A stretch of 57,731 bases of DNA, counting the filler, from Circinaria calcarea (taxonomy: Eukaryota), in NCBI GenBank assembly GCA_051942165.1. It is 6 parts of 6 records of this genome, joined end to end, with 100 filler letters (N's around TTAATTAATTAA, not from the genome) between each part and the next. Parts side by side here need not be neighbours in the genome. Positions count along the whole stretch, not along the records: positions 48,202 to 57,731 come from JAVECS010000920.1; 5 more parts are not named here. The stretch is one strand, 5' to 3'. Within the stretch, counting starts at the first letter, position 1. Every line of letters starts with the position of its first letter. Positions 9,548 through 57,731 of the stretch are shown here, in pieces. A model generated the notes under the pieces. The model saw only the letters and a list, made by a program, of their open reading frames with translations. It was not told where the DNA came from and ran no database searches. The position numbers and the translations under genes were made by a program.

Positions 9548-9647
9548 NNNNNNNNNNNNNNNNNNNNNNNNNNNNNNNNNNNNNNNNNNNNTTAATTAAT
9601 TAANNNNNNNNNNNNNNNNNNNNNNNNNNNNNNNNNNNNNNNNNNNN
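9548..9647. other. Artificial contig linker (N-run/TTAATTAATTAA/N-run)
   Basis: 100 bp, stop codons in all six frames, identical at all five junctions. Confidence 0.98.
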
Positions 9648-18076: not shown

Positions 18077-19189
18077 CGTCATGGCTTGGTCTGTCTCCAT
18101 TTGATAGACTTACTTTCCGGATTCTCTGTATAAATTACTGCATGCATAGTGGAACTGATGTCGTCACTTCCATCGGTCCACCATCTCGAGTCTTCCGTCT
18201 ACGCTCGCACTACTATCACCGTTCAACGAAATACCTCACGGCCCTCTAAATTTTAATTCGGCGGGTACACTGTACATAGCAGCCTTGAAGGCTTCTTAGT
18301 GTGATCGGCATTTAGCGTGTCTTTGCTGTGTATACCACCTACTTCTGCTTATATTGCATTGGGAAGGATCCTTTTTTGTTTTAGTCGGTCCGGGATCGAA
18401 ATACGGCTTTCGAGGTGCCGTTGGGCGTTTGCAAATACAGTATGTCAGCTGCATCATAGATATGAGGGCGGCGGACCCGGCGTCGTCTGCTGCCCGTATG
18501 GATAGCTTTAGACATAGGTTGAATACCGAGGCAAGAATTTAATCTTTATCCTGGTGGTCCCACGTCGAACGTGATGTGTCGAAAGTATTCAAAGGGACAA
18601 GTGACCATGGTTTAGGGATCAGGTCCACTCATCGTAGATGAATCTAGGGCCACTTGTACGTTACACAGAAGTATACGTATGATTACATATATTCCCCTGC
18701 TGAAGTTTACTCGCCTCACTCGAGCGTCCTTTGTGATGCTTCAGCGCGAGTAAATCAAGTTCAACTTTACTTTTGAGGGCGATCCTGGTGGCTTTTAACA
18801 ACTGTAAGTATGCAATGAACTCGAACTGTGAGAATGTTATGTCAAACCTGGAGCAAGCAATGAAGCACAAACCTCGAAACCCTCATGCCCGCGTACGGAG
18901 TGTTTCCGATCTCCTTCGAGCAGATGAGCCTTTTGTTCATACCACACCAAGAATCTATCCCTTTCGTCTCTTTTGGTTTCAAAAGTGGGTTCGATGTGGG
19001 AGCTCGAGCACAGAGATCCGATGCGCGTACACTGTACTTGGATGTGTGCTTGTTACTCATCACTGTCCGGCGAAAGAAAAAGATCAATATCCACTATTCC
19101 TTCATCTCCTTTCTAAATCCTCGACATCCCTCTGCTACTCTCCTACCATCTACCCCTTCCCCCCCTTTTCAATCTCTTCAAACAAGCCC

Positions 19190-19289
19190 NNNNNNNNNNN
19201 NNNNNNNNNNNNNNNNNNNNNNNNNNNNNNNNNTTAATTAATTAANNNNNNNNNNNNNNNNNNNNNNNNNNNNNNNNNNNNNNNNNNNN
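19190..19289. other. Artificial contig linker
   Basis: Same 100-bp N/TTAATTAATTAA/N block. Confidence 0.98.
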
Positions 19290-28830: not shown

Positions 28831-28930
28831 NNNNNNNNNNNNNNNNNNNNNNNNNNNNNNNNNNNNNNNNNNNNTTAATTAATTAANNNNNNNNNNNNNN
28901 NNNNNNNNNNNNNNNNNNNNNNNNNNNNNN
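28831..28930. other. Artificial contig linker
   Basis: Same 100-bp block. Confidence 0.98.
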
Positions 28931-38466: not shown

Positions 38467-38566
38467 NNNNNNNNNNNNNNNNNNNNNNNNNNNNNNNNNN
38501 NNNNNNNNNNTTAATTAATTAANNNNNNNNNNNNNNNNNNNNNNNNNNNNNNNNNNNNNNNNNNNN
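38467..38566. other. Artificial contig linker
   Basis: Same 100-bp block. Confidence 0.98.
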
Positions 38567-39391: not shown

Positions 39392-42300
39392 CTACCCCCC
39401 GGGAGTGTATCCCGGCCAACCCCACGATCGTGATACATCCTCGCCGAGAAAGTCGCCGTACCCCCCTTGCAGTGCGCCCCCTTGATAAGCGCTTTCGTCT
39501 CGTCCTTGCTCGCCCGGAATGGCTTGCGTCGAGGCTGGTCCGCGGGGTCCTACTTGCTCGTAAGGGTTCTGAAAGTATCCGTTGGGCTCTAGGACGTGCT
39601 CACCCGCCTGCCTAAAAGCAGAATCTTCCATGGAATGTCCGCCGTAGAAGGATTGTTCCTGGTTGTGGCCCATGACCGGTTCGTGCATTTCCGTATCAGG
39701 GCGTACGTGCGATTGATAGCCCGATAGCGCAGTATCAAGGCGTCCGTATGATGAGGTCCTCGGGAAAGCTAACTTCTCGGACGTCGACTCATAGCTACTG
39801 TTCTCTGGCTGGTAGTGAACACTGGCGGGTATTCCAAGTCCATAACCGAGACTCGGAAGCAAAGTGGCTTGGTCATCGCCTGTGACGCGCTCAACCTTTG
39901 TAGTAGGGAAGTCTGATGAGAATGGCGCTTCAGAAGTCGTTGGGCTAATCTCGAGTGGGCCGGCCTGCAAACCTTCAGTCATCCAGAGCCCGCTTGCCCG
40001 CCGTTGTTGTTGCTGTTGTTGTGATGAGGACAGGCGTTGCTTCAAAGACGGTTTCTTCACTGGTACTCGAGGCTTCAAACCCGAACCGGTCACAGTCTTT
40101 CGTTGGCGTTTCTTCCCGGCTGGCGGTGGAGGAGATGGTGAACCCAGTGATCTTTCAGCTGCTGTCGAACCACCAGCTCCCGATGCGGCCCAACCTGTAC
40201 CTGCGTTTGTAAAAGGAATAGAGCTACCGGCCATTTGAAAATTTAGCGGTGTGAAGCCACCCGGCAGAAATCCTTGGAGACCTGGGTCTTCAAGCAACAT
40301 CATGCCTTGCTTGCCCATGACCGTCTCCTTCGCCAATTCACCAGATTGAAACTCCTTCATTAGCCCCCCAAGCTTCTCGACTGCAGCACCTGCGAGCTTA
40401 TGTATACCTAATCGGTTCATCTCCAGGAAGGTACTGTAGGTCTGTTGAACAACCCCAAGATCCTGGGTATCTCCGGTTTCAAGCATGGACAAGGTAAGAA
40501 TCATGGCAGCATTGAAGGCTTGTTGACCCATGGTCCAGCAGATCATCGCAACGCGTAAACGGCTACGGAAAAATTCCATAGCGTCCAGTAAAGCACGACA
40601 AGACCGAAGGACTCGTTCTCGCCCTCGGGGGACTTGCTCCCTATCGCCGGATGAAAACTCTGTCATCAGGTCGACTGCCGAGTCCTTTTCATAATGCATG
40701 TTCCCCAATCGTTGTCGGTTGAGTAGGATCAAGAGATTATGAGTCTTTCCATAAAAGACGGCCGCTTGAGCGTCCAAGGGCCATGGTGGAAGAGGTTTCT
40801 GTTCATCGAGCCATGTCTTATCGAACAGGATCAGCTCGGGAAGAGTCTCTTTCAGGGCGAGTAGCTGGTCCGTATAGAGATCGATTTGATGGTTATTCAA
40901 GTACCCAGCAGACATTATCTGGCGGGATAGGATAGTAAACTGGCCAATGTAGTTGGACAGACTTTGGATGACCGGATTCGGAATCAATAGTTCCGGAGCT
41001 GGGCAGTCACCCATACTCGAAATCCCAAGAGGCCTACCCAAGGTCATTGAGTACTGCTGATCCATGTGAAGCATCCACCACCATATATTCTTTCGCGCCA
41101 TGACTTCCCCAAGAGGCGGAGGGGGATTTAATTGGCTTGGGTCACGATGTACTGGAGCTGTTAGAAAGAATGTTCTGGATCAGATATCGGCCTCGGTAGA
41201 TAACATACATCCAATACTTTGTGCCAACCGGACTGTAACACCGAACAACGCCCATGCATCGAGGAATTTGCCGCTATTCGTGAGATATGGACCGATCAAA
41301 ATCAGCGTTTCGACTGCCAGTAGCGACGGTCTGTTCATGAATGATGCCATCCGTAAAGCTTGCATGGCAGCAGCGACTAAGGAGATTAGCAAGGATTTGC
41401 AGGTGCTGGCTTTGGGATATCTCACTGTAGACGTCGCCCTTCTTCGACTCCTCCTCCATCGCCCCTGCCACCCACTTTCCTCCCGACCTGTCATACACTC
41501 CGTTCTGAGAACATTGAGCTAGCGTTGCAAACAGTAGAGCCAACATGTCCGGATGAACATGGGCGTTGTGTTGAATGTTGGCGAGAAACCGCTCGACCTC
41601 CTTCTTGGTACATTCCTCAGGCACGTGGGGGAATGAACATGACTGAACTCGATGGTGGAATATCTCCAGACCATCGATTATTTCATCCTTACTAGGTAGC
41701 AGCTCCACCAGTCCGGATACCCCGTCTTTGGCGGGCCAGAGCGTAGGGAACGGATGTGAGGTTGCCATCTGGAAGGCATAAATGTCCGTACTCCGTGGTA
41801 CCGAATGGGTAAGATTGGCCGCCTTCGGACCCACCGAAAGGTTTGCAAACTATGGCGGTCAAACGATGGCCCTGTAGGATCTAAAGGGAGTCACCAACCT
41901 CTTCAATCACACTGGCCATGCCGGGGGTCCCAAAGTAGATACTATCAGCAATTTCACCCTTGTTGAGTCGCTTCTGCCGAAGATTCACAGGTTTCTTCGG
42001 TACCTTTGGGACGGCACCCGCTTCCTGACCGGCATGCCCCGAAGGGCCATCCTCGGATTTGATGGATTGGCCACCACCGAGGATCTCGATCTGACGACGT
42101 AGGCGAGCGATTTCCTTGTCTTTCTCCCTCAGCGCTTCAGCTTGGAGGATTGGATGCCTCTCCGCTTCGGTCAGATCGTAATGGCAGCTGTCTGCTATCT
42201 GATGCAAAGAGCAGGCCGTACATGGCTGCACCCGGTCACACTGAACGCCGGATTAGACATGATGAGCCTGGGACCATCGTAGGGGACTGGGCTTACCTTG

Positions 42301-42449
42301 ACCTTGCGGGTTCTGCAGGGATTGCAGGACAGCTGAGGGCGTTTGGTTTTTTCTCGAGTTGGCTGAGTTTGCAACGACGGCCCTGTCTGTCCTCCAACAT
42401 CGTCTATAGGCGACGTGGAAGACGCAGCTTGCACGTCCGCAGCAGACAT
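39392..42449 (-). CDS. Zn(II)2Cys6 transcription factor with fungal TF middle homology region
   Basis: KRPQLSCNPCRTRKVK|CDRVQPCTACSLHQIADSCHY; AWALFGVTVRLAQSIG, RKNIWWWMLHMDQQYSMTLGRPLGI; several introns. Confidence 0.92.
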
Positions 42450-45400
42450 GATATTTTCTTTCTTAACAAAGAGCAGATAGAGGGAGATGGTAGCGAAGCT
42501 GGTATAGTATAAAGTCTTAATCGGCAAGTACACACATAGGAACCAGTACGCGCATCAATCAGGCTGAAAGACGATGGCAGACGGTGTGAAGAGATACACA
42601 GAGGACTCGACTGTTGCTTTATGGAGTTCCGATCATCTCTCGCATCCACCCTATTGAGGGAAAGGGAGGGATGATGGCCACTTTATGACGGACCATCGCG
42701 AGACCGTAATGAGGAATAAGGACAGCGCAGGGGTGTGGCGGACCTTTGATTAGACGGTAGGACCCCTGAGAAGCGATTGGTGGGCCGGGACTGGGTCCGG
42801 GGGTAGATGCATGTCTGTCGATCGTTTGGCGAAAGTGTGGAGCGTCAACAACCGATCTTTGGTTCCCTAGCTTGCACTTGGAGTTATCGCTCTTGCTCGC
42901 CGGATATTTATCACACTGTACCTTGTCGGCCCCTGCCAGTACCGCGTCTACAGTAACGGGGAGAGTGGGCAGTGAGGGTCACGCGGCACACGGCGGTCTG
43001 TGTTGCAGATACGGGAGCTTAGATCGGATCTGAGAGAGGTAGCTGATGAAGGGCCTCGGTGGCTTGCATCGGTGGCAGATCATGTCGAAGGAGTGGTCAC
43101 ACCCGGGATCCGCTCCCTCTACCCACATCCAGTATGATACAGGTCACACCGCGCATGGCCCCAGATCATATTAGGAGCGCCGATGCCTTTCTCTCATCAT
43201 GTATGTGTAAGCGCTTGGTAAGTCGGCGTGGGACAAGACAGCAGCTATGAAACGCAACTTCGATCCGAGACTTGTGACTGACAATTCCCCATTCCAGCTC
43301 TCCTGCCGAGATTGAAACCTTGGCGGATTGCGTGATGGGAGGGAGCTTGGATATCAGACGCTGCCCCCCAAACAAACATGAACACGAATACATCTCAACC
43401 TTAATGCTGCCACCATGACGGAAAAAAAGCGCCTTCCAGCTTGGCTAACTTCCAAGTAGTGCAGAAGGAAGCCAGCACGGCCTCCGATCATTCGACGCCC
43501 CTCGCAGAATTTGCCCGGTTTGAGATGCAGCGGCTTGAGGGCATTAACAGATTTCGAAGCTACCCGTTTTTATGCTAGAAGGCAAGGGGCTTTTGGGTGA
43601 TGTCAAGCCGATCGTTCAGCACCTTGCCACAGCCGGTAAGTTCGCTGCTAGGGCAGGCTCGTTATGCGGGCGCCATGTGAGAGTGGTGGAATAAAGCTTG
43701 AAGATAGTGAGTTTGCGCGTTGCGCTTGTAAAAACATAGCGGGCACTTACGGGTGCTGCCGAGGGGACTGATTGGACCGCGTCCAGACCCTCGAGCGAGC
43801 AGGCATCACCACTGTATACTGATTGACCATTTAGACAGTAAGTCGAGTATCTGAGCAGAGAACAGTGTCTCAGTCAGAAACCGGAGTTTACATGTGTGTA
43901 TCACCGCTCGAGATTGGCGTTTGTGGCGGTTGACCTCGTAAGCATCACCAATCAACATTGGGACAATGATTAGAGGTACAGTAACGAGAAGGGGGCAAGC
44001 TGAAAAACGCCTGGCCCAAATCGTCCGAAGGATTATACGACCGAATAGATTCAGCTGTCAAAGTACCGATTCGGTGCTTCGACCATGTCACCTTGACGCC
44101 CTTCATGTGCGCGAGCGGATTGCGCCTCAGGACAGCGCTCGCATTGGTCATTGAACGAAGTGATTTGTCACCGGTCTTTTGCCTGCATGAAGGAAGTAGT
44201 AGGTATCACCAGTAGTTTTCGAGCGCAGATTCTGATCTCGAGTCTCGCCGATGTGCCATTTACGGTTGGCTGATGGTGAATCCACTCATGTCGGTCTCCC
44301 TTGCTGTCAGCGGCCACCTTTCAGGTCGTGATCCGCTGTTATCGTTGTCGCCGAGTCTCTGGCGGAGCTGAAAGTAAGCAAACCGCGCAAGCCACGATGG
44401 ATCGAGATGCATGATATACCCACGGACAATGGCTCCGGCGGCAGCCAGTAGAGATTCGTCCATGCTTTCTGAAGCTATGAACCCGGCATGAATGTACAAA
44501 AAGACGAAGCGAAACCACACAGAGGCAGTGCCGGTGATGGCTGCAAGGTCGACCTAACAACCCTGCAGCTGCGTTTAAGCAACCGGAAACCCGACTACCA
44601 GGTCCAGCTTCCCACCATCAAGATAATGCAGGATTCGGAAAACGAGATTTGTGCGACTCCAAACGACCGCCAAAGCAGACTAAAAGGTCACCCTGGACGC
44701 TCAGGGGCAATTGGATCGGATCATTCCGAAGAGGAGACGGGACATCCAGATCTGACCAGACAATTTTAGCTTTAGCGCCAGATCTTGCATGAAACTGGGC
44801 GTCCCCTAAGGTACGGAGCAGAGGAGGATATCTCGCTGCACGCATCTGACAACTGCTGGGTACGAGATGATTATCGAGTTTTGTTCAGAAGCAAACCGTC
44901 ATCACGCTAGTTCTATGAGAACGAGGAAACAGGTGCGGGGAGATAGTCCTCGGATTGCCTCTCATGTACGCACTAGTAGAACCATGCCCGTGATTGCCCT
45001 CCTGCAAACTACAAGCCCTACTCCGTAGGATCATTCCCCTCCGACATGTACTGTGGAGCCACTGGCCAAGGTAATCCGAGGACAACTCTTCAGTACCATC
45101 TACAAAAAACACACTGTACAGTGTCCTTGCAATTCCCCAGAGGACACTTGGTGGGAATACCGTCTCGACACCAGCGCACAGCTTCCCTCAGCGACGTGGA
45201 TGTGCTAATCCCTCGCTAGGGATTCAGATTGGTCAGTTCTCCGGGGAGTGCTCCGCCCAGTGGGGAAAAGGGCGTGTCATTACCCCCCCTTTCCTGGTAG
45301 GACGTACAAGGGTCCATTTGTGCGTAAGTGGGAGGAGGGGGGGGGATCGGATGTTTGTGAGCACGACTGCTTGTTTAGCGGGGTAAGGTAGGTATCACAC

Positions 45401-46273
45401 TCACTTCTGCATCCTTATCGGTCGATGTATCCTGCACAGAGTGGTCTGGCCGAGCCTTCTGTACTGAACCGTGAAAAGGGCATGGGAGACCGTGCATTGG
45501 TACTTTTGGCTGCGTCCGAGTGCGCTCCCAAACGTCCCTCTCGAATCCTTTAAAGATCTGCGGTGGGGGGAGACACGCCTATGGCAGCATCTCTTCATCT
45601 ATGAACCTGTACGGTTTGGCGGTGAGCTCCCGATATGATTGGTTGATCGGGTTGCCCACGTGTCTACCGCTGCACTTTCAATATGAATGACCTCATGTAC
45701 TAGCCCATGGGCTGGCTGGCTAGTTTTGCCATGTAGGGAAAGCTGAGGCTATGGAGCGGGGAGTAAGCTCGGGTGTGGGGGTACGAGGGCTGGCTGAGCG
45801 GAAGAAAGTGCGGAGACTAACAGGTGGGGCCGGCAGAGTGTGGGGCCTCAGAGTGGCTCTAAAGGATAGTAGTGGGTGGAAATACAATACGACAGCATGA
45901 TGTGCAGCCGCCATTTCCTAGCAACCATGATTGCCCCAAGGGCGCTGTTTGTTTCATCCTCTCGGCCGCTGTCCGGATCTCGGATAGAGCAAACTTGGCA
46001 TCTTGGGGAAGTTTGGCTTGGCTAGGTGTGCTATATCTGATCATGTGATGAACCGGCGGGGTGGTGTTGTTGGACTACCTTTGTAGTAAAAGGCTATATG
46101 GCCCAATCGCGGAAGCTCTGCCGTAAGCCGTGTTAGAAGGATTACTGTGGATTACCAGTTGACCGGACCGTAAAGTATTCGGATCTTAATTAGACGGATG
46201 AAGGCCCAAAGAGCCGTCGGATAACAATCTGACTTCCCTCCCTTTTCGCCCCATCCCTACCATTCTCTACAGT

Positions 46274-46873
46274 TTACAAGCCTGGCGGCAACGTCTCAAA
46301 CGTCTCTGCAACCTCCTTCTCCCATCCCAACCTCACCTTGCCGTAAATCTCCGCGCCAGGTTCAAACTTCTGCCCTCCATCCAGCAAGATCGTGCGAGCA
46401 ATAACTTTGTCTCCGAGCACGGTTTGGTGGTGGTAGACGTGAGTGGTGCAGTTGGGGCAGTAGTAGCAATGGACGGGTTTGCCTGGTTGAAATGTCAGCG
46501 AGATATCCGAGAGAAGGACGATCGGGGGATGACGTTGGGGAAAATGAGAAAAGCTGGATGGGGGAGGGGGGAGTTACCAGAGTCTCCGTTGTACGTGTAG
46601 CATTTGAGAGCGTCTTTGCCCTTTGTGATGGTGAGGTCGTCTTTGGGAATTATTTGGTTGAGAGTGTAGGCACCCCCGCCAAGGGTCTTGCAGGTGTTGC
46701 AATGGCTATTGGAAGGAAGGGTGGTCAGCGTATATGGTGTGATGGATGTGGTGAGCTGGGTTTGGGAGAGGGGGGAGAATGAGGATGGCTCACCAGAGGA
46801 CGTGGGCGGTCGTGTCAAGCTTGGCGGTCCATTCGGTTTGACCACAATGGCATTTCCCGTTAAAGGTCGTCAT
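46274..46873 (-). CDS. GFA/CENP-V (Mss4-like) zinc-binding protein
   Basis: Three exons: MTTFNGKCHCGQTEW...HVLCHCNTCK...YNGDSGKPVHCYYCPNCTTHVYH...AEIYGKVRLGW...LPPGL*. Confidence 0.9.
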
Positions 46874-47716
46874 TGTGAGAGATTCGAGTGTTCTTTTTGG
46901 AGAATCAGGTGGGATGAGAATAGTACAAAGCTTTTCGTTCAAATCAGGAGAGAGGCGGGAAGAAGAAAGATGGAAGTAGGAGAGGGACCATGATGGATAT
47001 ATAAAAGGTCCCAAGCACTGAACAGCAAGGTCCCTTATTTAGCAGCCATCCCCACCTCTGGTAAGCAGTAATACGTCAGAAGTCCCGGCGCCATGGTTTT
47101 AGCTCATCCTCCGACTCCTTAAATCACGACTGTCACCAGAATCCCGAGTACAATTGCCCTAACGTGGCTCTTGTGTGATGACCAGCCAGGGGCTTGATTC
47201 GTCCATGGTGAATCTCGGTAGATTTTAACAAAGTCCATGCTCTCCGCTAAGGAAGGCTGACTCTACATACGGTAAGCGTAGCCGATGGAAAGCGACGGCA
47301 CAATTCCAAATACATTCCAAATCCTGTGCTGGTGCTAGCCCTCGAAGGAGCTGGGAATCCTCACCAAAGGTATAGAAGCCACCGCGATTGGTGCTACCTC
47401 TGTTCAATTGGACCGCCAGGGCTCGGCTAAAGTGTTCCGAGCCGTTCTGTTGACACAGGCTGGACATCTCTATGTGTTTACAGATTGGACGACTGGGGTC
47501 CATCTACCCGGGCGACGAAGACGGAATGTTAGTGTTGAGGAGTGTGGCCGGTAGTATGATGGCTTGGACCCGGGTTGTGTGAGAGGTGGTGGAGGAGAGC
47601 TTGTGAGTTAGGGGACAGGTTGGAGGGATGATCGGGCTGCTACGACCAAGCAAGAAAATAACAGATGTGGTGGAGAACGGAGGGCTTCCTACGGATACAG
47701 TTATACAGGTACATAT

Positions 47717-48101
47717 TCATACCAACAGTCCCCATTCACCATTGCTCTTCTTGGTGTCAAACACGGCCTCTTCCTCCAACCTCGCCACTAACCTCACCGG
47801 ATGCATAACAAGCCGCCTTGTGTACAGGTCGATCTCCTTAATCCGACACTCCCACCAGTCGCCAAGCTGAATGCCCCCCTCCCGCTTGCTGACCTCATCG
47901 TCGAACAGCGTCGCATCTGTGTGCGTCTCCCTTAGAATCCCAACTCTCGTCGGGGCGACGATGAAGATGTGAAAAGGATCGGGTAGTGTTGCCTCTTGGA
48001 AATAGTGTGCTCGAAAGATTAACTGCAGGGTCCAGTGTCGGTGAGAACTGCGTTTGGCCAGGGTGACCATGCGCTCGCGTTCCGAAATGCGCGGAATCAT
48101 G
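47717..48101 (-). CDS. Probable C-terminus of mitochondrial RNB-family exoribonuclease (Cyt-4/Dss1-like)
   Basis: HWTLQLIFRAHYFQEATLPDPF ... GDWWECRIKEIDL resembles the Pezizomycotina Cyt-4 tail as I recall it; the catalytic region lies beyond the contig edge. Confidence 0.6.
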
Positions 48102-48201
48102 NNNNNNNNNNNNNNNNNNNNNNNNNNNNNNNNNNNNNNNNNNNNTTAATTAATTAANNNNNNNNNNNNNNNNNNNNNNNNNNNNNNNNNNNNNNNNNNN
48201 N
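48102..48201. other. Artificial contig linker
   Basis: Same 100-bp block. Confidence 0.98.
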
Positions 48202-48260
48202 CCCCCCCCCCTTTTTTATCTCCTTCCGCTTCGCTCCTGTATCTGCTAACATGTTAGCAG

Positions 48261-50741
48261 GCCTGGTGCGCGACGCAGAACTTCGGCCGTCCTGCGTCCG
48301 GCTCGGCATATCTTTCCGGTGACTTGGTCGACGAGGGGAAGCTCTTGTTCTTTATTAAAGAGCATGTTGTTGAACGAGCCCCCCGCTCTGGCGCGCGTCT
48401 CGCGGCGGAAAAGAAGAGGAGGAAACAAAAGAAGGAAGAGGAGCGCCTGGTGGCGAAGAAAAGACGGGTTTCCGCCCTTCCTGGAAGAGCAGTGGCCGTG
48501 GGGGAGGAGTGGGTGGAAGAGGAAGAGGAGGACGCTGGCTTGAGCGCAGAGACTCCCTCCGAATTGTATTTGCAATATAATACAATTCGGGGTTATGTCT
48601 CTGCGATTCTGGGGCTGTATAATCGCCAGGTTTCGGCCAGGGTGAATTGCGCTCCTTGCCCGACTGGAGTTGCCTTAAAGGCACTCAAGTCCAGCGTCTC
48701 GCGCAGCGAGTTCCGTCGTCGCAGGTCCGAGTACGTGGACCGCGGCGTCGGCAACATGAAAGACGGGTATACTGCTGCGCAGGTGCCCGATGTCGCTGCC
48801 GCTGCCTACGGCTGGAAAAAAGAGAAGTCGATCGAGGCCGCGTTGCGTACCTGGGTCGACTTTTTACTAGGGCATTCGATGCTAATGCGATTAGGTAACC
48901 GGCTTATGCTAGAGTTACCCGATCTATTTATGATGTCCTTACCTCGCGAAGGTCCGCCCAGCAGTAGCTACGAAGCTTAGTACCTCGTTGCTCAAATGGA
49001 TCACGGTAGTACCCCCTTTTCTTTCGTTTGGACTGGTGTTCTAGCTAACTATATACAGGTAAAACTAACCAGCACGGCCGCATCGAGTACGGTGCGGCCT
49101 TGCGACATCGCAACCTCCTGGCTTGCCCCGTCGGGGCTTTATCGCTCTTCTTGTTCTGGAGGTGGCATTGCTCCGGGGAGCCCTTCCCTTGCTTTCGTAC
49201 CAGTCGTGACTGGTACGATATAAAGCTTCTAAAAAGGGACAATGCCCACCTCACAACCCGCCTTTCGGACCCTACGGCAGGGACCTGGATCCACCGCATC
49301 TATAATGCGAGTGGTGTCGTCGCCTCCCGAACAGGGCACGCCCCTCGGCGAACTGCGCCGAAGCATGGGGAGGATGTCGGAGTGACGGAGGACCAAGTAA
49401 GTCTTCCTTCTTGTATTTGTGTTGGCTAGATACATACTAACTACGTCTATAGATACGTCGTGCGGGACGTTGGAATGCAGACCAGATGACTGGCTGCTAT
49501 CTAACGTCTTTTGCCACGGCAATGGATGCGCGGGGATAGCGGATTTCGATCCTGACTATCCTGGCTCCTACTTTTTGCCTCGGGCGACCGTCGTTCCTCC
49601 GCCCTCCCTCCAGCAATGTGTCTGGCCCGCCCTGAACGGGTGGAGAGCTGCGCACATGCAGCTTTCAGGAGCAAGAGAGGTGGTGGAGCCGAACCTGGCG
49701 GCTGGTGCGTTTCTGGAGCTTCTTTCGAAGCTTAGAGAGGTGTTTTTACAGGTAAGTATGCCTTCTTTTCCGTTGGTTTTAATGATTGATTCAGCTAACT
49801 ACTTTATATAGGATTCTGTCTTCTTTCTGGAGGCTTTTCCCGGCCACCCCCTCTTCCGCCACCCCCTTTTCGCCTCCTCGGAGTATCTTGCCTTCGCCCA
49901 GGCAGTGAAGCGAGCTGTCGAGCTCGTGAAAAAGGAGGACCCACACTCGATCATGGTAGAGAAGGCGATGCCTGCCGTTGCCGAGCGTCTGCGGACCTTC
50001 TCTGGCATCATGCAGACAGGACTCACCTGCCTGAACGCGAGGCTTGAGTCCATGGAAGAGAAGGTAAGTTGCTGCTGCTTTCTTCTGCTAATCTACTTGT
50101 ACTAACTAAGTGCTAGTTCCAGGCTGTGCAAGCCTCCGTGGAGGACAGCCTCGGAGGTCAACTGACCCTGACCTTCTCTCCTGGTCGGACGAGGCTGCTT
50201 CCGCAAGGGTACGACAGAACCCCTTGCGCAGCAGCGAGAGAGGTCTTCCTCCCCTGCCCCTGGTACGGTACGGATCCCACTCCGCCCTACCTTCCAACCG
50301 GTCCTCTCTCCCTCGTCCTCCGTTCCTGGTCCTGGTCCTGCCTCTGCTGTGCCCATGGCTCCGCCCCTGACGCTGGCCGGACCTGCTCCCCTCGCTCCTT
50401 TGCCGATTGTCGCTCTCGCCGCTGCGAGCCAGGCACCCTCGTACAAACTGTCGAGGGAGGTCCGCGACATCCTCTCGCTGTGGAAAGAGTGGACGGTGGG
50501 CTTTGCAGGGCTCCCGTCCGTGGACGAGCTGGACAGGAGGTGGGGCTCGGCCTGGAGGGCTCCCTCGGAGCGGCAGTACTATAGTACTCGCCGCACCATT
50601 ATTGACGAGATTCGGAGGCGGGCAGGGGACTCGGAAGACTACGCTGGGGTGGTGAGAGGGATGGAGCCTGAGCGGAAGGCCTCTAAGGCGTCGCTGGATA
50701 AGGTCTTTAAGGCCTTGCGAAAGGACAGAAAGGGGGCATGA
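48261..50741 (+). mobile_element. Crypton (CryptonF-type) tyrosine recombinase gene, Ndc10-II-like YR + C-terminal GCR1_C domain; disrupted, 5' end missing
   Basis: Catalytic set LMR, GKTNQHGR, HAPR, AGRW, GCY; LACPVGALSLFLFWRW, WYDIKLL; GCR1_C-type LWKEWTVG...DELDRRWGSAWR...YYSTRRTIIDEI. In-frame TAG at 48978-48980 and +1 frameshift in T-run 49509-49512. Confidence 0.9.
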
Positions 50742-52280
50742 TTCTGTATATAATTATTAATTTAGATTTAGATCTAGATTAACTATAGACAAATAAAAGA
50801 CAGTATCTCCGCCTATTTACACGTAAATTTGCCCGTAGAACCGCGAGAAAAAGTCCTTGTTAAATAACCCCTAAGGTGTTCCGCCTCTAAAAGCTCGACG
50901 AAAACTTTACGAATTTACTGCGCACGCAATTCTGGACCGATTTGGCTCAAATTAACATATTCTATTGATTAATAGTATTATTTATTATCTAAATTATGAG
51001 ACTCTAATGCCTTGATGCGCGTGCTGGAATCAAGTGCACGAAGGTTTATTGTAATATTACGGGCGGATGACACTTTAGGGCGGTCATCCGCGGATCATCC
51101 ACGCTATTTGACCTACGATATCCTTCTGATATTATCTGGGGCTTCTATGTGCAAGGCATTATCCGGAGGGGAAGCTACTTAGTATGAGCGGAGGGGTCTC
51201 CCAGATTATTTATCAGGAGCGAGGGCAAAGGTCAGTAATACACTTAATATTAGCTCTTGAAACTGATCTCTCGGTTATATATAAGGTACATTCTTCACGT
51301 TCTATAACCAACCACAGTGATGCCTCCTAAACAAGAAATGCCCCTTCGAACGCATCTTTCAGGATTCTAATCACACACGCTCTCTTTGCGTTTCAATAGA
51401 TCATAAATTCACGTTCCTACAAAACACACGCCACGGTCGATCCACGGCGGGATCCCCGAGTCAAAATCCTACCAACGAGAAGATTATGGGATCCACATTA
51501 GAAACCTCTCTGGTGAATTGCAAGTTGTTGGAATCGTCGATACAGCTATCTAAAAAGCGCTGCTGCTATTGCCGATGGTAGAAATCACGGTATTGCGGCT
51601 CAAGCAGAGCACCGGCGTATTCAGTTTGAGTTGACTCTGTAGCATACATAACAGAGGAAAAATGGCCAAATACATCTTTAGTATGAGTACGACTGGTTGG
51701 AGAGGGAATTGGGTGTTGTCAGTAGATGTTTTTGTCTTTGAGTATGGTTTATTTCTCAAACTGCTGTACATCCTCTAGTTACAGATGGTTGGTTGGAGCA
51801 GGGTGGACAAGAAGATTAATATGTGCCCACCTTGGTCCTTCTCTTCCGAAGATTGCCGCCAATGACTAGCAGATAGATCCCCATAACATAAGGCGATTTC
51901 CCAATTGCTCCTCCACTTCCTAAAGTCTGATAACATTGGTGCAACTCGAAGTAGATAATCCGAATCCACCAAAGGATTTACACACATATGATCGATTCAG
52001 CCTCTCTTTATCCCCAGACTCCAAGCATAACAACCAGCTTCAGCCTAATCAAGATCCGGAAAATACAACAGCTGAAACACCAGCGGATTACATCATGGTA
52101 ACCTACAAAGCATGCTTGTCAGGGTCCGTGCGATCGCTGCAGTGCCGCACATATTCCGTAAGCTCAACCAAAGAAGCGATGTTTATCGAAGCCTCCTCGA
52201 CTCGGCGAGTTGACCACGAACGATGGTTGTGGTATCGATTGGAGGAGAGGATAGTTCAGGCCGATCGGCTGATATGGCCA

Positions 52281-55200
52281 TCATATTACTGGGTCAACCT
52301 CAAAACACCCGAGCAGAAGGTCGGAGTCTAGCTGTTCACCGATGATCACATTGTGATTCATGCTTTCCAGCTTCAGCTTTGGACCAGCACCTCCAGTGAA
52401 AATCTGCTTGTGCAGCCCTGCCTGACGACAGAGAGAGCTAAATCTGGGGCGTAGCTGCTTCAGCGCGTCTATGAAGACTTTTAGTTTATCACCTTCCAGT
52501 TCAAAATACCTAAAGCAATGTCATTACGTTATGATGATAAAACCCAAATAAATAAACTTAGCATACTGTTCGGTTTTTACCATCGTATCATCATCGAAAG
52601 CACTCTTTATGTTTCTCATGGGTAGAAGAGTCCATCCATTCTCATCCCCAATCTCTGATAGCCGCTCATTGAAGTCGAAAAGCTTTTTGCCCCTATCTTT
52701 TATTTTCCTTATTTTCTCTCGTCGGGAAACGTATTTTGCAGCGTTGCTTTCGTACTCTTGTAGTGTTATCTGCAGACAATCAATAACGAGACTATCCAAT
52801 GCACAGGTAGCGATTTTTTGATTTTTTCCCGCAATCTTCTTAGGAGCACTCCGAGGTTTTTCTTCATTTTTCCGCTTGTTGATGCGATGATATTCATATC
52901 GCCATAAAAAATGATCGTAAAGCGCCATTTCTAATAGACGCCGTTGAACATCAAGACAAGCCATTTTGACGTCGTTTACCACGTATAGCTGATATATGCT
53001 GCGGGCTTGGTTTGTACCAAATTCCTGAAACTGATTTGGATATCGACACAAGACGGAAAGGTCAATTAGAACTTGATGACCGCCAATAACGGAAGCAAGA
53101 GTAAGGATTTTATAAATATCAGCAGCTTGCAGAGTGGTGGACTGAACCTGGCAGTCGTAAAAGCGGACCCACTGTGGATTGAATACTTCCAAGTTCCGGC
53201 GGTGACCGTGCTGCTTCGATCCCGTGGTTTGATGTGGGTTAACAGGCAGTGTCCATCTTGTTATTGACTGGTTATCGTCGCTCTCCCATGACCGCTTTCT
53301 CAAAGTAGATTCGGAGATATCGTCAAGGTAAGATGAAATCCAAATTTGTTCGTGGAACGGCTGAAGCAGCTTTGCGATATATCTCGCTCGGAGTTTTGAG
53401 ATGTCAGTTATGGTAAGAACATCAGGATCCAGAAGCGACTCAGCCCTAAGAATAGTAAATAGCCCACAATTCCACGTATCAGCGTCTGCATTATATAGCT
53501 GTTATTAGAAGTATTAGTGATGTTGAAATTCAAACAACAATTTAATAATGACGTACCTCTTTAGTTTCGCGTCTTATGTTAGGGTAAACCTCTGAAAAGC
53601 AGTCATACACGAATTGTGTTCTCTCGTCGAATTTATCGGTTGTATTGTACACAGTAAAGGTGAAGTCTACGGTATCAACCACAATAAGGCACCAGTGATT
53701 TTCGTAGTGACAAGGTAAAAGGATTAAGTTGACTTCATCGGAACATATGAGCCGTGTAGAGTCTCTCTGATCATGGGCAGCTTGAGTTACTAAAGAGTCA
53801 ATAACCACCCACGCACGTTCAGACTGCCGAAAAAGCAATCGAATCGTATCAATTACAATAGTGTCACTGAGCCAAGAGTCACTAAGAGGAGACTTTTCTG
53901 GCAGAAACCTTTGAAGGTCGAGACGAACTTGCTCAGAATTAGAAAACGATGATATGAATGGTATTTTAGCCTTCGTATCAAGCTTTGAAAAGTTTTTTGT
54001 AGCAAAGTCAATCCACCATTGAATTATGTCAACGAATGGCACGCTGTTTAATGGAGGACTTAGAGATAATAGCGGCGGCTTGTCTGCTGTAGGCGAACGC
54101 ACGAGCATAGCAGTACCACTACCTGTGGAAGTCTCCGGCGCCTTCTCGGCACCCACTGGTCCCGATCCTGGTTGCTGCAAAATAGCGGCCGGAGAAGAAG
54201 GTTCGGATATAACTGGTAAGCTAGTTTGGCTGGCATTTGACGGTTTATCTGTGGGATCTGTCCCTGAGAGCATTACCGATGTGGGATCTGTATCTGAGAG
54301 CGCTACCGATGTTGGATCTATCTCTGAGAGCATTACCGATGTGGGATCTATCTCTGAAAGCATTACCGATATAGGATTTGTATCTGAGAGCACTACCGAT
54401 TCGTCGCTCGATACTGAAGCAGTATCAAAATTTGCATTACTCTTTGACGTAAGGTTCTTTCGTGGAGTAATGACCATTTTTTTGATACCGGCCTTGGACT
54501 CGTTCACTACCGTCTTCGCAATGGCTGAACTTGGTAATGAAGCTTTTTGGGTGTGCGAATTAGCGAGTCGAGCCGAGCAACGAACGGGATGTATTTCCGG
54601 AACCTTGATCAAGCCCTTTTTCGACGTCCTAGTCATCTTCGGGGAATCCTCCCATGATATATCGATATCGAGTAGCCTCGGGGTCTCTATCTTCATGTCG
54701 ATTACACACATAGGCTTTACATTGGGGCATAATCCAATGCTCTGACGACACTCGAGATAAAAGGGATCCACAACCCAATCATCTTGCGAGTAGTTGATTG
54801 CCTCTGCCATGTTGGCTTCGAGATTTATGCCCCAGTGGTAGGCATCTGACTGAAGTAATACCAAGTCTCCTGGCTTTTGAAGGATAATTTTGAACTTAAC
54901 CTTCCAACTGCGGAGTAGAGACGGTGAGGGAACCAATCCATAATGGCGGAGAAACTGACTGCACTCCGGTTTTTTAATTCGAAGTTTCTCAATCAATCGG
55001 CTCTCTAACTGAGATTTTGATCTGGGGTCGACAACAATCCAAAGTTTGGCTCCAAAGTACAGCAGATTGGCTGACTTTAAGTAAAAGTCCTCGACGTGAA
55101 GTGGAAACACTGAGCTGGATGAGGTTGAAATGTATACGAAACTTGAATGAATACCAGGAAAATGCTTGGCTGTACTTAGTAAATGTACGCCCGGCTGAAG

Positions 55201-55930
55201 TCCCGGTTCAGGAAGGCCGAGGTTGCTCCGAACTTCAGATCTATGCGCCGTCACGTTTAGGTATTCATGTACTGCATTGCTGCTTGCGAGTTCTGCTAGG
55301 CGTAACTCAAAAAGGTCCTCATGATCCGTCTTCCTATAGTCAATGTTTGTGTCTGAGAATGGGGGTATTATAAACGATTCTTCCGATTCAGCCAACTCCT
55401 TTCTCACGCCTTCCTGCACAACCAATATGTCATACTGTTCAGTAGAATATGTCTGTTGCAGCACGCTTCCTCGAGTCAGTGGCATCCTTAGTGCATCTTT
55501 AGCGGTAGCCCCGGTTCTGATGTGGAAGAATCCGAAGGGCGTTGGTGATAGCCCACTTTCGAGTTGGAAGAGATCAGTGAAACTCGCATGAGGGATATTG
55601 TAAACCTCATTGTGATGGTTTGCCTGCTCTGAAGTTGGTGGTGTGGGTAATGGCGATGTTCCTTGGAAAAACGACTCGTCACTGATAATACCGGATGACT
55701 CAAGCTGAGCTACACATGGCGTATTCTTTCGAACGCTGGAACCCTCAGAGGAGATAGCCCCAACATCGAGCTCGCGGAGCAGCTCATGTCGTATTAATTT
55801 GAATTCATTGGGGGAGGAGGTTTTCTTTATATGCGACAAAAGGGCTTTAATCTGGCGAGATAGTTAGTACAAGAAAGCTAGGTATAAAACCATCGATTCC
55901 TACTTCTTGCAGTTTAGTATCTTGAGCCAT
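52281..55930 (-). CDS. JmjC (KDM4-like) demethylase + Ulp1-like (C48) cysteine protease fusion with unknown C-terminal helical domain, ~1150 aa
   Basis: Four exons joined in frame by canonical introns (~55853-55903, 53499-~53555, ~52510-52566). JmjC: FPLHVED, SAN, GAKLW, CSQFLRH, QKPGDLV, YHWGIN, AEAINY. Protease: WLSDTIV, IDSL, LLPC..NHWCLIVVD, YNT, WNCGLF. No internal stops found. Confidence 0.85.
54251..54400 (-). repeat. Coding tandem repeat, 5 x 30 bp
   Basis: Encodes SVVLSDTNPI SVMLSEIDPT SVMLSEIDPT SVALSDTDPT SVMLSGTDPT. Confidence 0.95.
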
Positions 55931-56025
55931 CTCACCGGAGGTTCAGTATATCATTGATTGAAGATTAATTGAAAAGTAGATTTTACACCGAAGTATTCGA
56001 CGTGAAATAATTCTCTAACTAATAA

Positions 56026-56081
56026 GGGTTTAGCGTGCAGAGCTCAAGGTAAAACCACCGTGAGCTCTGCACGCTAAACCC
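56026..56081. repeat. Perfect 21-bp inverted repeat with 14-nt loop
   Basis: GGGTTTAGCGTGCAGAGCTCA-AGGTAAAACCACCG-TGAGCTCTGCACGCTAAACCC. Confidence 0.97.
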
Positions 56082-56201
56082 GTTCCTTATTGGCGCCACC
56101 AACCATAAAGCGAAAACAAAGGACATATGCTCTTTACTTTCTGTCTATTCTTTTTCCTCTTTTACTTTCCTACAAGCTGCTACTCCTTCTTGGTCTTGAG
56201 G

Positions 56202-57731
56202 TTACGGTAGCTTTTCCTTTTTTACCGCCTGATCCTGAGCAGCTTTCGAATGCGCCCCTAAGGGTGTTGAATTTGAGAGGGAAGACGTGCTATGAGCATG
56301 ACGCCGAGTCTGTTCTTCAAGGATATGCCGCTGCCGTTCTATTTCTTGTTCTTTTCCCTCTAATTTGCTTTGATCCTCAACAAGCTTTCGGCGGGTGTTC
56401 TCCTGTTCTCGCCTTCGGCTCTCCAACGCCAGTTTCTCTGACTCAAGCTGTCGAAGATGTTCTTGGGCTTCATTATTCTGTGCAGATAAATGTTGTTGTA
56501 GCTGCTCCGGGATATCTTGCATCGGTGTGTCTCTCGAAGGCTCGTCCCCAGTGGGTTGTCTCGATGGCGGTGACGAAACCATATTAATATTTGATGTAGC
56601 TGTCGACCTGCAACTGATTATTGCCTGGACAGCATCGTCTTGCTCTGGCACGCCGAAAAAGCTCAAGTACCAACATCTCAGGCGGAACATAGAGGTGATC
56701 TGCTTGCCTTGCTCCTCTCTTCTATCATGAAGATGGCGAAGGAACAAATACTTACGGTCTTCTTCATAAGTGGAAGTAAGCGGTATACCACACCTTTTAT
56801 TCGACGTTATCTCGTAATCATCCGTTACGAGAAGTGGCTGCTGAGGTTCTATTAACCCGATTTCGCTCTCATCCTTGGAATACTGCCTCAAGGCTTCTAT
56901 TTCAGGGGACTCAAATCCCAATTGATAAGTAAGATCGGCCATGTTGCGAAGAGCTTTGGTATTTATTGCGGCCGGTAGCTTCGCTAGAACTATTCTCCCA
57001 CTTGGCTTTTTGGGGATTTCACGGTGGTGTCGTAGAGCATACGCGCAAAGTGTTCGGTAGCCTAGGTTTTTGATGTCACTTGAGCCAGCTGGCATAGGAG
57101 TTAATCTTGACTCTGTTTCCTGTATCAAGATCAAGCCTTTTGTCTGGTTTACCCCTGTGTATATTCCCTCGATGGCCGTCCGCAGGGTATCACGGGAACC
57201 TATGGATACCAGCCACTTAAGGCAGTCCGAGATGGCATAGAGGAGAGCAACGTCTTTATGAAAAGTAATTAGGGAGGGCATTAGTCGCCTAAAATCTAAT
57301 AGTTTAATTAGAATTCTTTCGCGCTCTTGGCCGGTGAAGTTTTAGAAAATTTCCCCGCTAAGAACCTTATTACGTATAGTTTTTGCGTCGGCTATAGATG
57401 CCCAGGGAGCTTTAAGCTCTAACGCCTTAACTGTTATAGAATCAACCTTCGCCATCGCAGCCTTATCATTATGGAGAATGACACTCCAGGTTTTTTCGAT
57501 ATGTTCGACGAGGTAATGAGAAATCTCCTAGGATTAAATCAGTATAGGTGAAAAATCTGCAAAACGGAAAATTAACTTACCTCATCGCATCTAGAAGCGG
57601 AGTCTTTATGGGAAGTACTAATTTTCATTCCCGCTATGATTCCGGGTATCTCTCGTAGCGAATCATATGCAGCAGCGCGGTCTTTATGTTTCGTAATATT
57701 CTTTAGATTACGGGCCCTGTGAGGAGATAAA
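56202..57731 (-). pseudogene. DUF3723-family gene (Starship-associated), 5' end outside the window, in-frame stop
   Basis: IPGI..GMKI..HK....CDEEISHYL, KVDSITVKALELKAPWAS, MPSLITFHKD, YALRHH, LGFESPEI, KRCGIP...YEEDRKYLFL, ITSMFRLRCWYLSFFG, then coiled coil. In-frame TAA at 57342-57344; intron ~57528-57580. Confidence 0.82.

Follow-up and report, generated by a model that had tools for sequence, protein, structure and literature searches.

What would a fungal gene do that joins a histone demethylase to a SUMO-protease-like domain, and does such a gene travel with mobile DNA? The question is raised by a locus in a joined stretch of 57,731 nt of DNA from Circinaria calcarea (hereafter the window), in which positions 48,202 to 57,731 come from JAVECS010000920.1 and adjoining parts need not be neighbours in the genome. 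A first-pass annotation of the window had described at this locus a fusion of a KDM4-like JmjC demethylase with an Ulp1-like (C48) protease, and had proposed that the protein serves a mobile element as a 'double eraser' of methyl and SUMO silencing marks. The reading towards which we lean slightly is that the product of the fusion gene is an accessory chromatin enzyme found in filamentous ascomycetes, and that the gene is probably cargo of giant tyrosine-recombinase elements, either Starship-like or Crypton-associated. Of the two erasing activities the demethylase half appears plausible and the protease half doubtful.

The coding sequence has its exact limits at 52281-55930 on the minus strand, with the ATG at 55930 and a TGA at 52283-52281. 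The first-pass annotation had placed it correctly and had described it as one reading frame; the placement stands, whereas the coding region consists of four exons. Three consecutive minus-strand stop-to-stop frames of 773, 325 and 79 amino acids underlie the gene. Removal of three introns (52, 58 and 57 nt), all of them GT..AG introns with a branch-like motif in the style of filamentous ascomycetes, yields a spliced coding sequence of 3483 nt and a protein of 1160 amino acids with a single, terminal stop. Splicing of the very short first exon produces an N-terminus homologous to MSDILDQAIESLL, which the relatives encode without an intron.

We regard this four-exon model as validated by homology to the relative P0013 (1305 amino acids), an NCBI entry named "hypothetical protein" from the metagenome-assembled genome of a lichen fungus. 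Residues 704-1304 of P0013 align with residues 584-1156 of the window protein at 40% identity (E 1e-127). The alignment is ungapped over the last two splice junctions and reaches the C-terminal CF-E motif. Residues 93-440 of the window protein also align to P0013, at 50% identity (E 4e-93), and the motif region of exon 4 is conserved in P0013, P0020, P0028 and P0036. All elements of the fusion named in the first-pass annotation were present. The exon with the catalytic Cys is, as it had noted, joined to the protease only by splicing, exon 2 supplying the WLSD, HW and VYNT motifs and exon 3 WNCG; the low-complexity linker does contain a tandem repeat, with a period of 30 nt; and the further helical domain appears as a helical C-terminal region in the structural model. 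The linker itself varies among the relatives in length as well as in sequence.

Judged by its sequence, the N-terminal part of 400 residues is a JmjC core of the KDM4/Rph1 type with a complete Fe(II)/2-oxoglutarate (2OG) site. Pfam PF02373 matched the window protein with E 7.6e-18 (65.5 bits vs a gathering cut-off of 24), and the JmjC match was obtained in 15 of the 15 scanned relatives that contain the region. In a phmmer search of the PDB sequences Rph1 was the best match (1.2e-13), KDM4D scored 5.5e-13, and KDM4E, KDM4C, KDM4B and KDM4A were also matched. The JmjC family profile, which was made from 11 family sequences, recognized KDM4 structures (2w2i 8.8e-30, KDM4D/C ~4e-29, Rph1 9e-25); weaker matches were obtained to rice Os05g0196500 (4.7e-20), JMJ14 (2.1e-18) and KDM5 (~1e-13).

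The residues of the active site support the same assignment. In the alignment with Rph1 and KDM4D the H-x-E and Y-H positions are occupied by His261, Glu263 and His348, and Asn271 and Lys278 fall on the N and the K of 'SINYLHFGEPK' in KDM4D/E; all are unchanged in 18 of 18 family sequences, in agreement with the HVE...YH iron ligands and the 2OG-binding Asn and Lys of the first-pass annotation. A Trp and four Zn-site positions are likewise kept in all 18 sequences. At the Zn site, Cys306 and His312 correspond to C..FLRH in KDM4, and Cys377 and Cys384 are invariant (18/18), their register with the KDM4 C-x-C being only approximate. The candidate for the 2OG-binding Tyr is Tyr206, which is present in 18/18 but lies outside the aligned stretch and is therefore only the probable equivalent. 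Among four close copies of the gene (loci L001-L004, described below) the ratio of nonsynonymous to synonymous substitution rates (dN/dS) of the JmjC part was 0.21, the strongest purifying selection found in the protein. The JmjC site looks competent.

The AEAIN motif, which follows the second His, is invariant in the family and identical to that of KDM4D/E in the alignments. KDM4A has Ser-Thr at the corresponding pair, and the pair influences the preference for K9 or K36. The predicted substrates are trimethyl marks on histone H3, and because the motif matches KDM4D/E, trimethylated lysine 9 (H3K9me3) is a better guess than trimethylated lysine 36 (H3K36me3).

The first-pass annotation had seen neither JmjN nor PHD or Zn fingers. 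Consistent with this, no JmjN (PF02375), PHD, Tudor or C2H2 domain was found by Pfam in the window protein and 15 relatives at E values up to 0.05-0.1. A diverged JmjN-like segment may nevertheless exist. The AlphaFold2 (AF2) model of exon 2, built from 11 sequences, was poor (predicted local distance difference test, pLDDT, 47) and was treated as weak. In VIA-align comparisons this low-confidence model matched the Rph1 core with Z 10.1 over 188 residues (model 106-349, chain 10-333) and KDM4A with Z 8.6 (model 95-391, chain 19-327).

The second enzyme-like domain was assigned to C48 by profile and by fold. A family profile of the C48 domain matched SENP1 (7.2e-9), SENP5 (1e-6), SENP2 (6e-5) and SENP8 (5e-3), and its alignment with SENP1 spans the WLND box, the His box (HW), the Asp and the Cys. 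For structural comparison, residues 742-1305 of P0013 were modelled with AF2 from a 32-row alignment inspected by eye (pLDDT 81.9). Foldseek placed SENP1, SENP3, Ulp1 and NEDP1 on top (E 4e-6 to 2e-5), and the 46 matches at E<=0.001 were CE-clan proteases only. VIA-align of the same model against 48,161 chains gave SENP3 (Z 15.8), Ulp1 (15.6), SENP5 (15.1), SENP1 (15.0) and NEDP1 (14.9), with 168-194 residues aligned to the SENP, Ulp1 and NEDP1 structures. In the model the His is located at the start of a strand, the acid at the end of the next strand, and the Cys in the first turn of helix 174-187. The window's own N-terminal part of C48, in a low-confidence model, matched NEDP1 (Z 9.6), SENP3 (9.2) and Ulp1 (8.8). 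These models indicate that the CE-clan C48 fold is real; the first-pass annotation had read a C48-like core from the residues HW...YNT...NCG, and the objection that there might be no C48 fold fails.

Catalytic residues of this domain are largely kept, although the counts include close relatives (L001-L004 and P0005-P0010) and are hence non-independent: His728 of the HW box, which aligns to the SENP1 His, is present in 16/16 sequences, and Cys785 of NCG, which aligns to the SENP1 Cys, in 11/12. Both Trp of the WLxD and HW boxes are invariant. The acid position is occupied by Asp in 13 of the 16 sequences, by Asn in two (the window protein and P0001, its closest relative) and by Glu in one (P0013). 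As SENP1/2/3/5 outscore SENP8 by sequence, the best guess for the modifier recognized by this domain is SUMO.

The last ~330 residues form an all-helical domain that is conserved across the family. Its relatives came from an exhaustive HMMER search with exon 3, which returned 35 representatives among 1.84 billion, 19 of them at E<=1e-10; a word-based search for longer exon-3 relatives was empty. No relative of the helical domain was detected in Pfam, in the PDB sequences (best E 0.4) or in the ESM Atlas. No fold match above ~Z 5 was found for it either, in a structure search that was dominated by C48 and was not made with the helical domain alone. Among L001-L004 the exon that encodes the Cys box and most of the helical domain had dN/dS values of 0.31-0.45.

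The first-pass annotation had treated the helical domain as an afterthought. Because three JmjC-bearing relatives that lack C48 (P0015, P0026 and P0039) retain the helical domain despite that absence, it is this domain, and not C48, that would be the constant partner of the demethylase. As a constant companion of the JmjC core, it may target the enzyme or bind a partner.

The family is small and patchy, and its named relatives come from lichen-forming fungi. Members carry generic names in the public databases, one of them 'Lysine-specific demethylase 4B' at NCBI. Beyond the CF[DE] motif the C-terminal tails vary from member to member. Full-text searches of PubMed Central (PMC) and bioRxiv yielded no description of a JmjC/Ulp1 fusion or of a Starship-borne JmjC protein, the supplementary tables of Starship papers, which possibly list such cargo, being outside their scope. 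The combination of JmjC, C48 and an orphan helical domain appears to be an undescribed architecture built from known enzyme folds.

Is the gene carried by a mobile element? Four loci on metagenome contigs (L001-L004) show the complete architecture with introns at the same places, and together with the window they provided three independent contexts for inspection: the window, L001, and L002/L003/L004. In the window a DUF3723 gene lies directly upstream of the fusion gene, and the window ends inside it, 1.8 kb past the fusion gene. DUF3723 is one of the conserved Starship genes according to two papers (PMC9156397, PMC10104507). In L001 a gene for a DUF3435 tyrosine recombinase (3.9e-54) is located 2.8 kb downstream of the fusion gene in convergent orientation. 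Of the conserved Starship accessory genes DUF3723 alone was seen beside the fusion gene; FRE, PLP and NLR were not. The mobile-element link proposed in the first-pass annotation was thus upheld in part: DUF3723 or DUF3435 occurs within 3 kb in two of the three contexts, but no bounded element could be demonstrated. The association is circumstantial.

Comparison of L001 and L002 provided a further indication of mobility. Positions 9871-13942 of L001 and 9644-13722 of L002 are 89.8% identical at the nucleotide level over 4.1 kb, which corresponds to the gene only, plus upstream fragments of ~0.15 kb. The other flanks are unrelated at the DNA and the protein level. Identity sets in no more than 0.55 kb ahead of the ATG, the long block opening at an imperfect palindrome, and is lost a few codons short of the stop codon; the tail of each copy is thus read from its own flank. 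L003 and L004, two contigs of a single assembly, have 92.8% identity across 7.5 kb, and the downstream flank is common to L002-L004 for at least 4.6 kb. The fusion gene does not behave like a conserved single-copy core gene, a possibility raised in the first-pass annotation: the family is small, one assembly contains two diverged copies, and copies of ~90% identity stand in unrelated flanks.

Some further features of these contigs were recorded. The DUF3435 gene of L001 (16747-19997, minus strand) extends across four stop-to-stop frames; two of these are in one frame and are split by a single stop at 18337, which is premature or else belongs to an intron. The L003 and L004 contigs begin and end at the same L002-homologous positions (10695 and 18355), as expected if the assembly broke at repeat borders. 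The downstream neighbour at 13905-17032 of L002 (minus strand), found also in L003 and L004, contains the motif 'LPSKHEGGD...VSH'; it is 2OG/Fe(II) oxygenase-like by eye and has no Pfam hit. The upstream palindrome of L001 and L002 was considered as a feature shared with the palindrome of the window (Table 1) and was rejected, as it was not significant (z -1.8 and -2.4).

Coordinates of the features in the window are collected in Table 1.

Table 1. Features of the fusion gene and its surroundings in the window (exons are listed in coding order; residue numbers refer to the spliced protein)
Feature	Position	Strand	Evidence
Exon 1: ATG and 8 codons	55904..55930	-	GTAGGA donor, CTAAC branch, CAG acceptor
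Exon 2: 765 codons; KDM4-like core, linker and N-terminal two thirds of C48	53557..55851	-	
Exon 3: Cys box (WNC785G, helix start), short disordered stretch, family-specific helical domain	52567..53498	-	
Exon 4: end of helical domain (LRPxL..LC...LDSxLLLxCF) and stop codon	52281..52509	-	
JmjC domain; Fe ligands His261/Glu263/His348, 2OG residues Asn271/Lys278	54793..55122	-	Pfam PF02373
Linker, disordered, Ser/Thr/Pro/Asp-rich; limits approximate	54052..54654	-	pLDDT <50 over exon-2 residues 346-607
30-nt tandem repeat in linker (10-aa units, SVMLSEIDPT-like)	54250..54400	-	repeat spacing 30 nt, 85-89% identity
C48, N-terminal part: WLSD box, His728-Trp729, Asn745 at Asp position	53557..54039	-	Pfam PF02902, profile, fold
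Palindrome: perfect 21-bp stem, 14-nt interior	56026..56081	.	-31.8 kcal/mol as DNA, z -9.9, 0/200 shuffles as good
DUF3723 gene, runs off window end	56202..57731	-	Pfam PF12520 on three consecutive ORFs: 3.5e-41, 3e-16, 9.4e-7
Crypton-type tyrosine-recombinase-like gene	48258..50741	+	NDC10_II 2.4e-16, GCR1_C 1e-17

The palindrome occurs once in the window, between the DUF3723 stop, 120 nt away, and the fusion ATG, 96 nt away. On the other side of the fusion gene the Crypton-type gene is in convergent orientation, 1.5 kb from the fusion stop. Its GC content is 57%, vs 44% for the fusion gene (neighbours ~44%), and it is split over several frames. A repeat search over 51000-57731 found no terminal repeats, and Rfam gave no match over 42000-57731. 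Among the sequencing runs listed as containing the sequence there was one DNA run, with 0.05 of the sampled words, and no RNA run, a result without bearing on expression. The OB-fold domain of mitochondrial cyt-4 is matched in isolation at 47717-48100 on the minus strand (5.6e-10), and no RNB catalytic part was found downstream; the match may represent a shortened piece of a gene bordering the transposon-type region. Pairs of 44-N runs, 12 bases apart, occur at 9548-9647, 19190-19289, 28831-28930, 38467-38566 and 48102-48201, one of which hides the start of the Crypton-type region. We had considered the runs near 48.1 kb to be a scaffold gap and dropped this explanation, as they recur every ~9.64 kb and look like masking.

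A number of observations weigh against our reading of the gene, some of them directed at the protease and others at the mobile link and the substrates. In exon 2 of the window PF02902 was sub-threshold (E 0.012, 15.9 bits vs a cut-off of 20.7), the intron having removed the Cys box from the frame of this exon, and only three relatives passed the cut-off (P0006 21.6, P0010 21.5, P0013 20.8); that 9 of 10 unspliced relatives have an equally sub-threshold match at the same place speaks, on the other hand, for a real domain. The fold evidence for a complete C48 domain comes from P0013, a 40%-identical relative, and not from the window protein. The first-pass annotation had cautioned that Asn replaces the usual Asp and that the oxyanion Gln is not evident, and for the window protein it was right on both counts: Asn745 (VYNT) takes the place of the catalytic Asp, and there is no Gln at the SENP1 position in the window sequence (D-A-D-T-W-N-C). 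The Q-Q of SENP1, with the oxyanion Gln six residues before the Cys, aligns to G-t of the family profile, and some relatives carry Gln at shifting offsets from the Cys (-3, -5, -6 and -7). P0027 has Ser in place of the catalytic Cys. The N-terminal part of C48 had dN/dS values of 0.48-1.40 among L001-L004 (~151 codons, noisy) vs 0.21 for JmjC, and the domain is missing from P0015, P0026 and P0039, in which JmjC and the helical domain are intact. From these comparisons we conclude that C48 is probably an optional and weakly constrained part of the family, and that in the window protein its isopeptidase activity would be slow or atypical at best; it may do no more than bind a Gly-Gly modifier. 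The substitutions at the acid, oxyanion and Cys positions, the relaxed constraint and the losses would all be expected of a demethylase with a dead protease, in which C48 is decaying or persists as a structural or binding pseudo-enzyme and the helical domain gives specificity, perhaps by binding SUMO. This explanation overlaps with the one we prefer, and we consider it quite possible, if short of an even chance. It has to contend with the His and Cys conserved in nearly all sequences, the invariant Trp residues and the Asp kept in 13/16, and also with the small dN/dS sample, which represents one subclade. Cys-His-Asn triads, moreover, function in other cysteine proteases. In summary, the architecture, the JmjC site and the C48 fold of the proposed double eraser were found, whereas its protease half is weakened by the Asn, the lack of the Gln and the relaxed constraint.

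Turning to the carrier and the substrates, ordinary genes fill the window up to ~48 kb (RPL3, KRE6, SPB4 helicase, actin-related protein, GFA), and no DUF3435 captain, terminal inverted repeat (TIR), target-site duplication (TSD) or element boundary was found in the window. In the L002/L003/L004 context no Starship marker was seen up to 10 kb away; the assembly with L003 and L004 is metagenomic, and the two might represent different organisms. Both substrate assignments, H3K9me3 and SUMO, were made by comparison with KDM4 and SENP residues. Housekeeping genes at most 10 kb away in the joined window, the lack of element boundaries, the marker-free context and a relative named simply 'Lysine-specific demethylase 4B' would suit an ordinary lineage-specific host regulator, that is, a diverged KDM4 paralogue with extra domains that controls host genes, for example in secondary metabolism or stress, neither rides on a mobile element nor serves one, and has transposon-type neighbours by coincidence, its region being accessory and rich in repeats. 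An intact gene under purifying selection, which bears no signature of repeat-induced point mutation (RIP; TpA/ApT 0.78), would be equally in keeping with such a role. We find it rather unlikely, since coincidence would have to account for DUF3723 or DUF3435 within 3 kb in two of three contexts and for ~90% identical copies in unrelated flanks, and since the family is small and patchy. A different view of the L001/L002 borders is that a block of ~4.1-4.6 kb, comprising a short upstream segment and the open reading frame, is a selfish unit of the size of a gene, self-mobile possibly by means of its helical domain. The onset of identity at most 0.55 kb before the ATG, the start of the long block at the imperfect palindrome, the end of identity just before the stop codon with tails supplied by the flanks, the family-wide divergence of the tails after CF[DE], and the strong palindrome at the equivalent upstream place in the window all have a ready explanation there. 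That such a unit exists is nonetheless highly improbable in our estimate. The protein showed no fold of the transposase, recombinase, nuclease or Rep kind, and no TIR or TSD was seen; the palindrome of L001 and L002 falls short of significance, a single pair of contexts was compared, and the downstream flank shared by L002-L004 suggests that the gene moves or is duplicated within something larger. Cargo of a giant element is the reading we keep.

How does the fusion compare with known systems? Its N-terminal core has its best sequence and fold matches among the KDM4/JMJD2 enzymes (human KDM4A-E and yeast Rph1), with which it shares the H-x-E...H iron site, the 2OG-binding Asn and Lys and, with two of the Cys in only approximate register, the Cys/His Zn-site positions, as well as the AEAIN of KDM4D/E. 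Unlike KDM4A-C, which have PHD/Tudor domains, and Rph1, which has C2H2 fingers, the fusion ends in C48 and the orphan helical domain; its core is ~30% identical to KDM4 over ~130 aligned residues, and its distribution is patchy rather than universal. The protease-like domain resembles Ulp1/SENP and NEDP1/SENP8 (MEROPS C48, clan CE) in fold (Z 15-16 for P0013), the WLND and HW boxes, the acid and the Cys at the start of a helix. It differs from Ulp1/SENP in the Asn for Asp of the window protein and in a family without conserved Gln, and further in being split by an intron, placed behind a demethylase, optional in the family and under relaxed constraint.

Parallels also exist among genes of mobile DNA. 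Iyer and co-workers reportedly described transposon-encoded TET/JBP dioxygenases of fungi in 2014. A later paper likewise reports that fungal transposons encode TET/JBP dioxygenases (Kojima 2025, PMC12730594). Like these enzymes, the fusion would be a 2OG/Fe(II) oxygenase that erases silencing marks on fungal mobile DNA and for which escape from silencing is proposed, its carrier being putative. TET/JBP enzymes, in contrast, act on methylated DNA bases and are found inside defined DNA transposons with transposases, whereas the fusion has a histone-type JmjC oxygenase and its hosts are Pezizomycotina with lichen-forming members. Ulp1 domains occur on Ginger1 and Mutator transposases, according to Bao et al. 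2010 (PMC2836005). There C48 travels with mobile DNA, as it would here, and its function is likewise unproven; Ulp1 is fused to the transposase in those elements, whereas the C48 of the present gene follows a demethylase, in a protein that has no transposase domain. The conserved accessory genes of Starships named by Gluck-Thaler et al. 2022 (PMC9156397) are DUF3723, FRE, PLP and NLR. The fusion gene resembles Starship cargo in adjoining DUF3723 in the window and in being near DUF3435 in L001. The family is not among the conserved cargo listed there, and the main text of that paper has no mention of JmjC, protease, SUMO or histone (PMC9156397).

In the mechanism that we propose the working part would be the KDM4-type demethylase, removing trimethyl marks from histone H3. 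The helical domain, together with C48 where present, would direct the demethylase to a substrate that may be SUMO-marked heterochromatin. In fungi, DNA that invades the genome or is repeated is silenced by heterochromatin based on H3K9me3. On a mobile element the enzyme would oppose this silencing and keep the element, or other H3K9me3-marked DNA, transcriptionally open. In its most specific form the proposal is that Starship- or Crypton-linked elements of ascomycetes carry a SUMO-tethered, helically targeted KDM4-type H3K9me3 demethylase, which strips the heterochromatin of the element or, following transfer, of the recipient genome; we offer this form tentatively and think it somewhat doubtful.

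The present gene may bear on the question of how giant elements with cargo remain active, or have that cargo expressed once they have been transferred horizontally; its interest depends on the still unproven mobile-element link. If the link is true, an element-borne demethylase would be a concrete counter-silencing mechanism, extending the case of the TET/JBP DNA demethylases to histone marks; it would be the first case of a eukaryotic mobile element encoding an eraser of histone marks, the histone counterpart of TET/JBP. Even without a mobile link, the gene has an apparently undescribed three-domain architecture that unites two well-studied enzyme classes. The family holds a conserved helical domain without a detectable relative, and, with C48 present, degenerate or absent in its members, it offers a natural series in which a SUMO-protease-like module may be seen to direct a demethylase.

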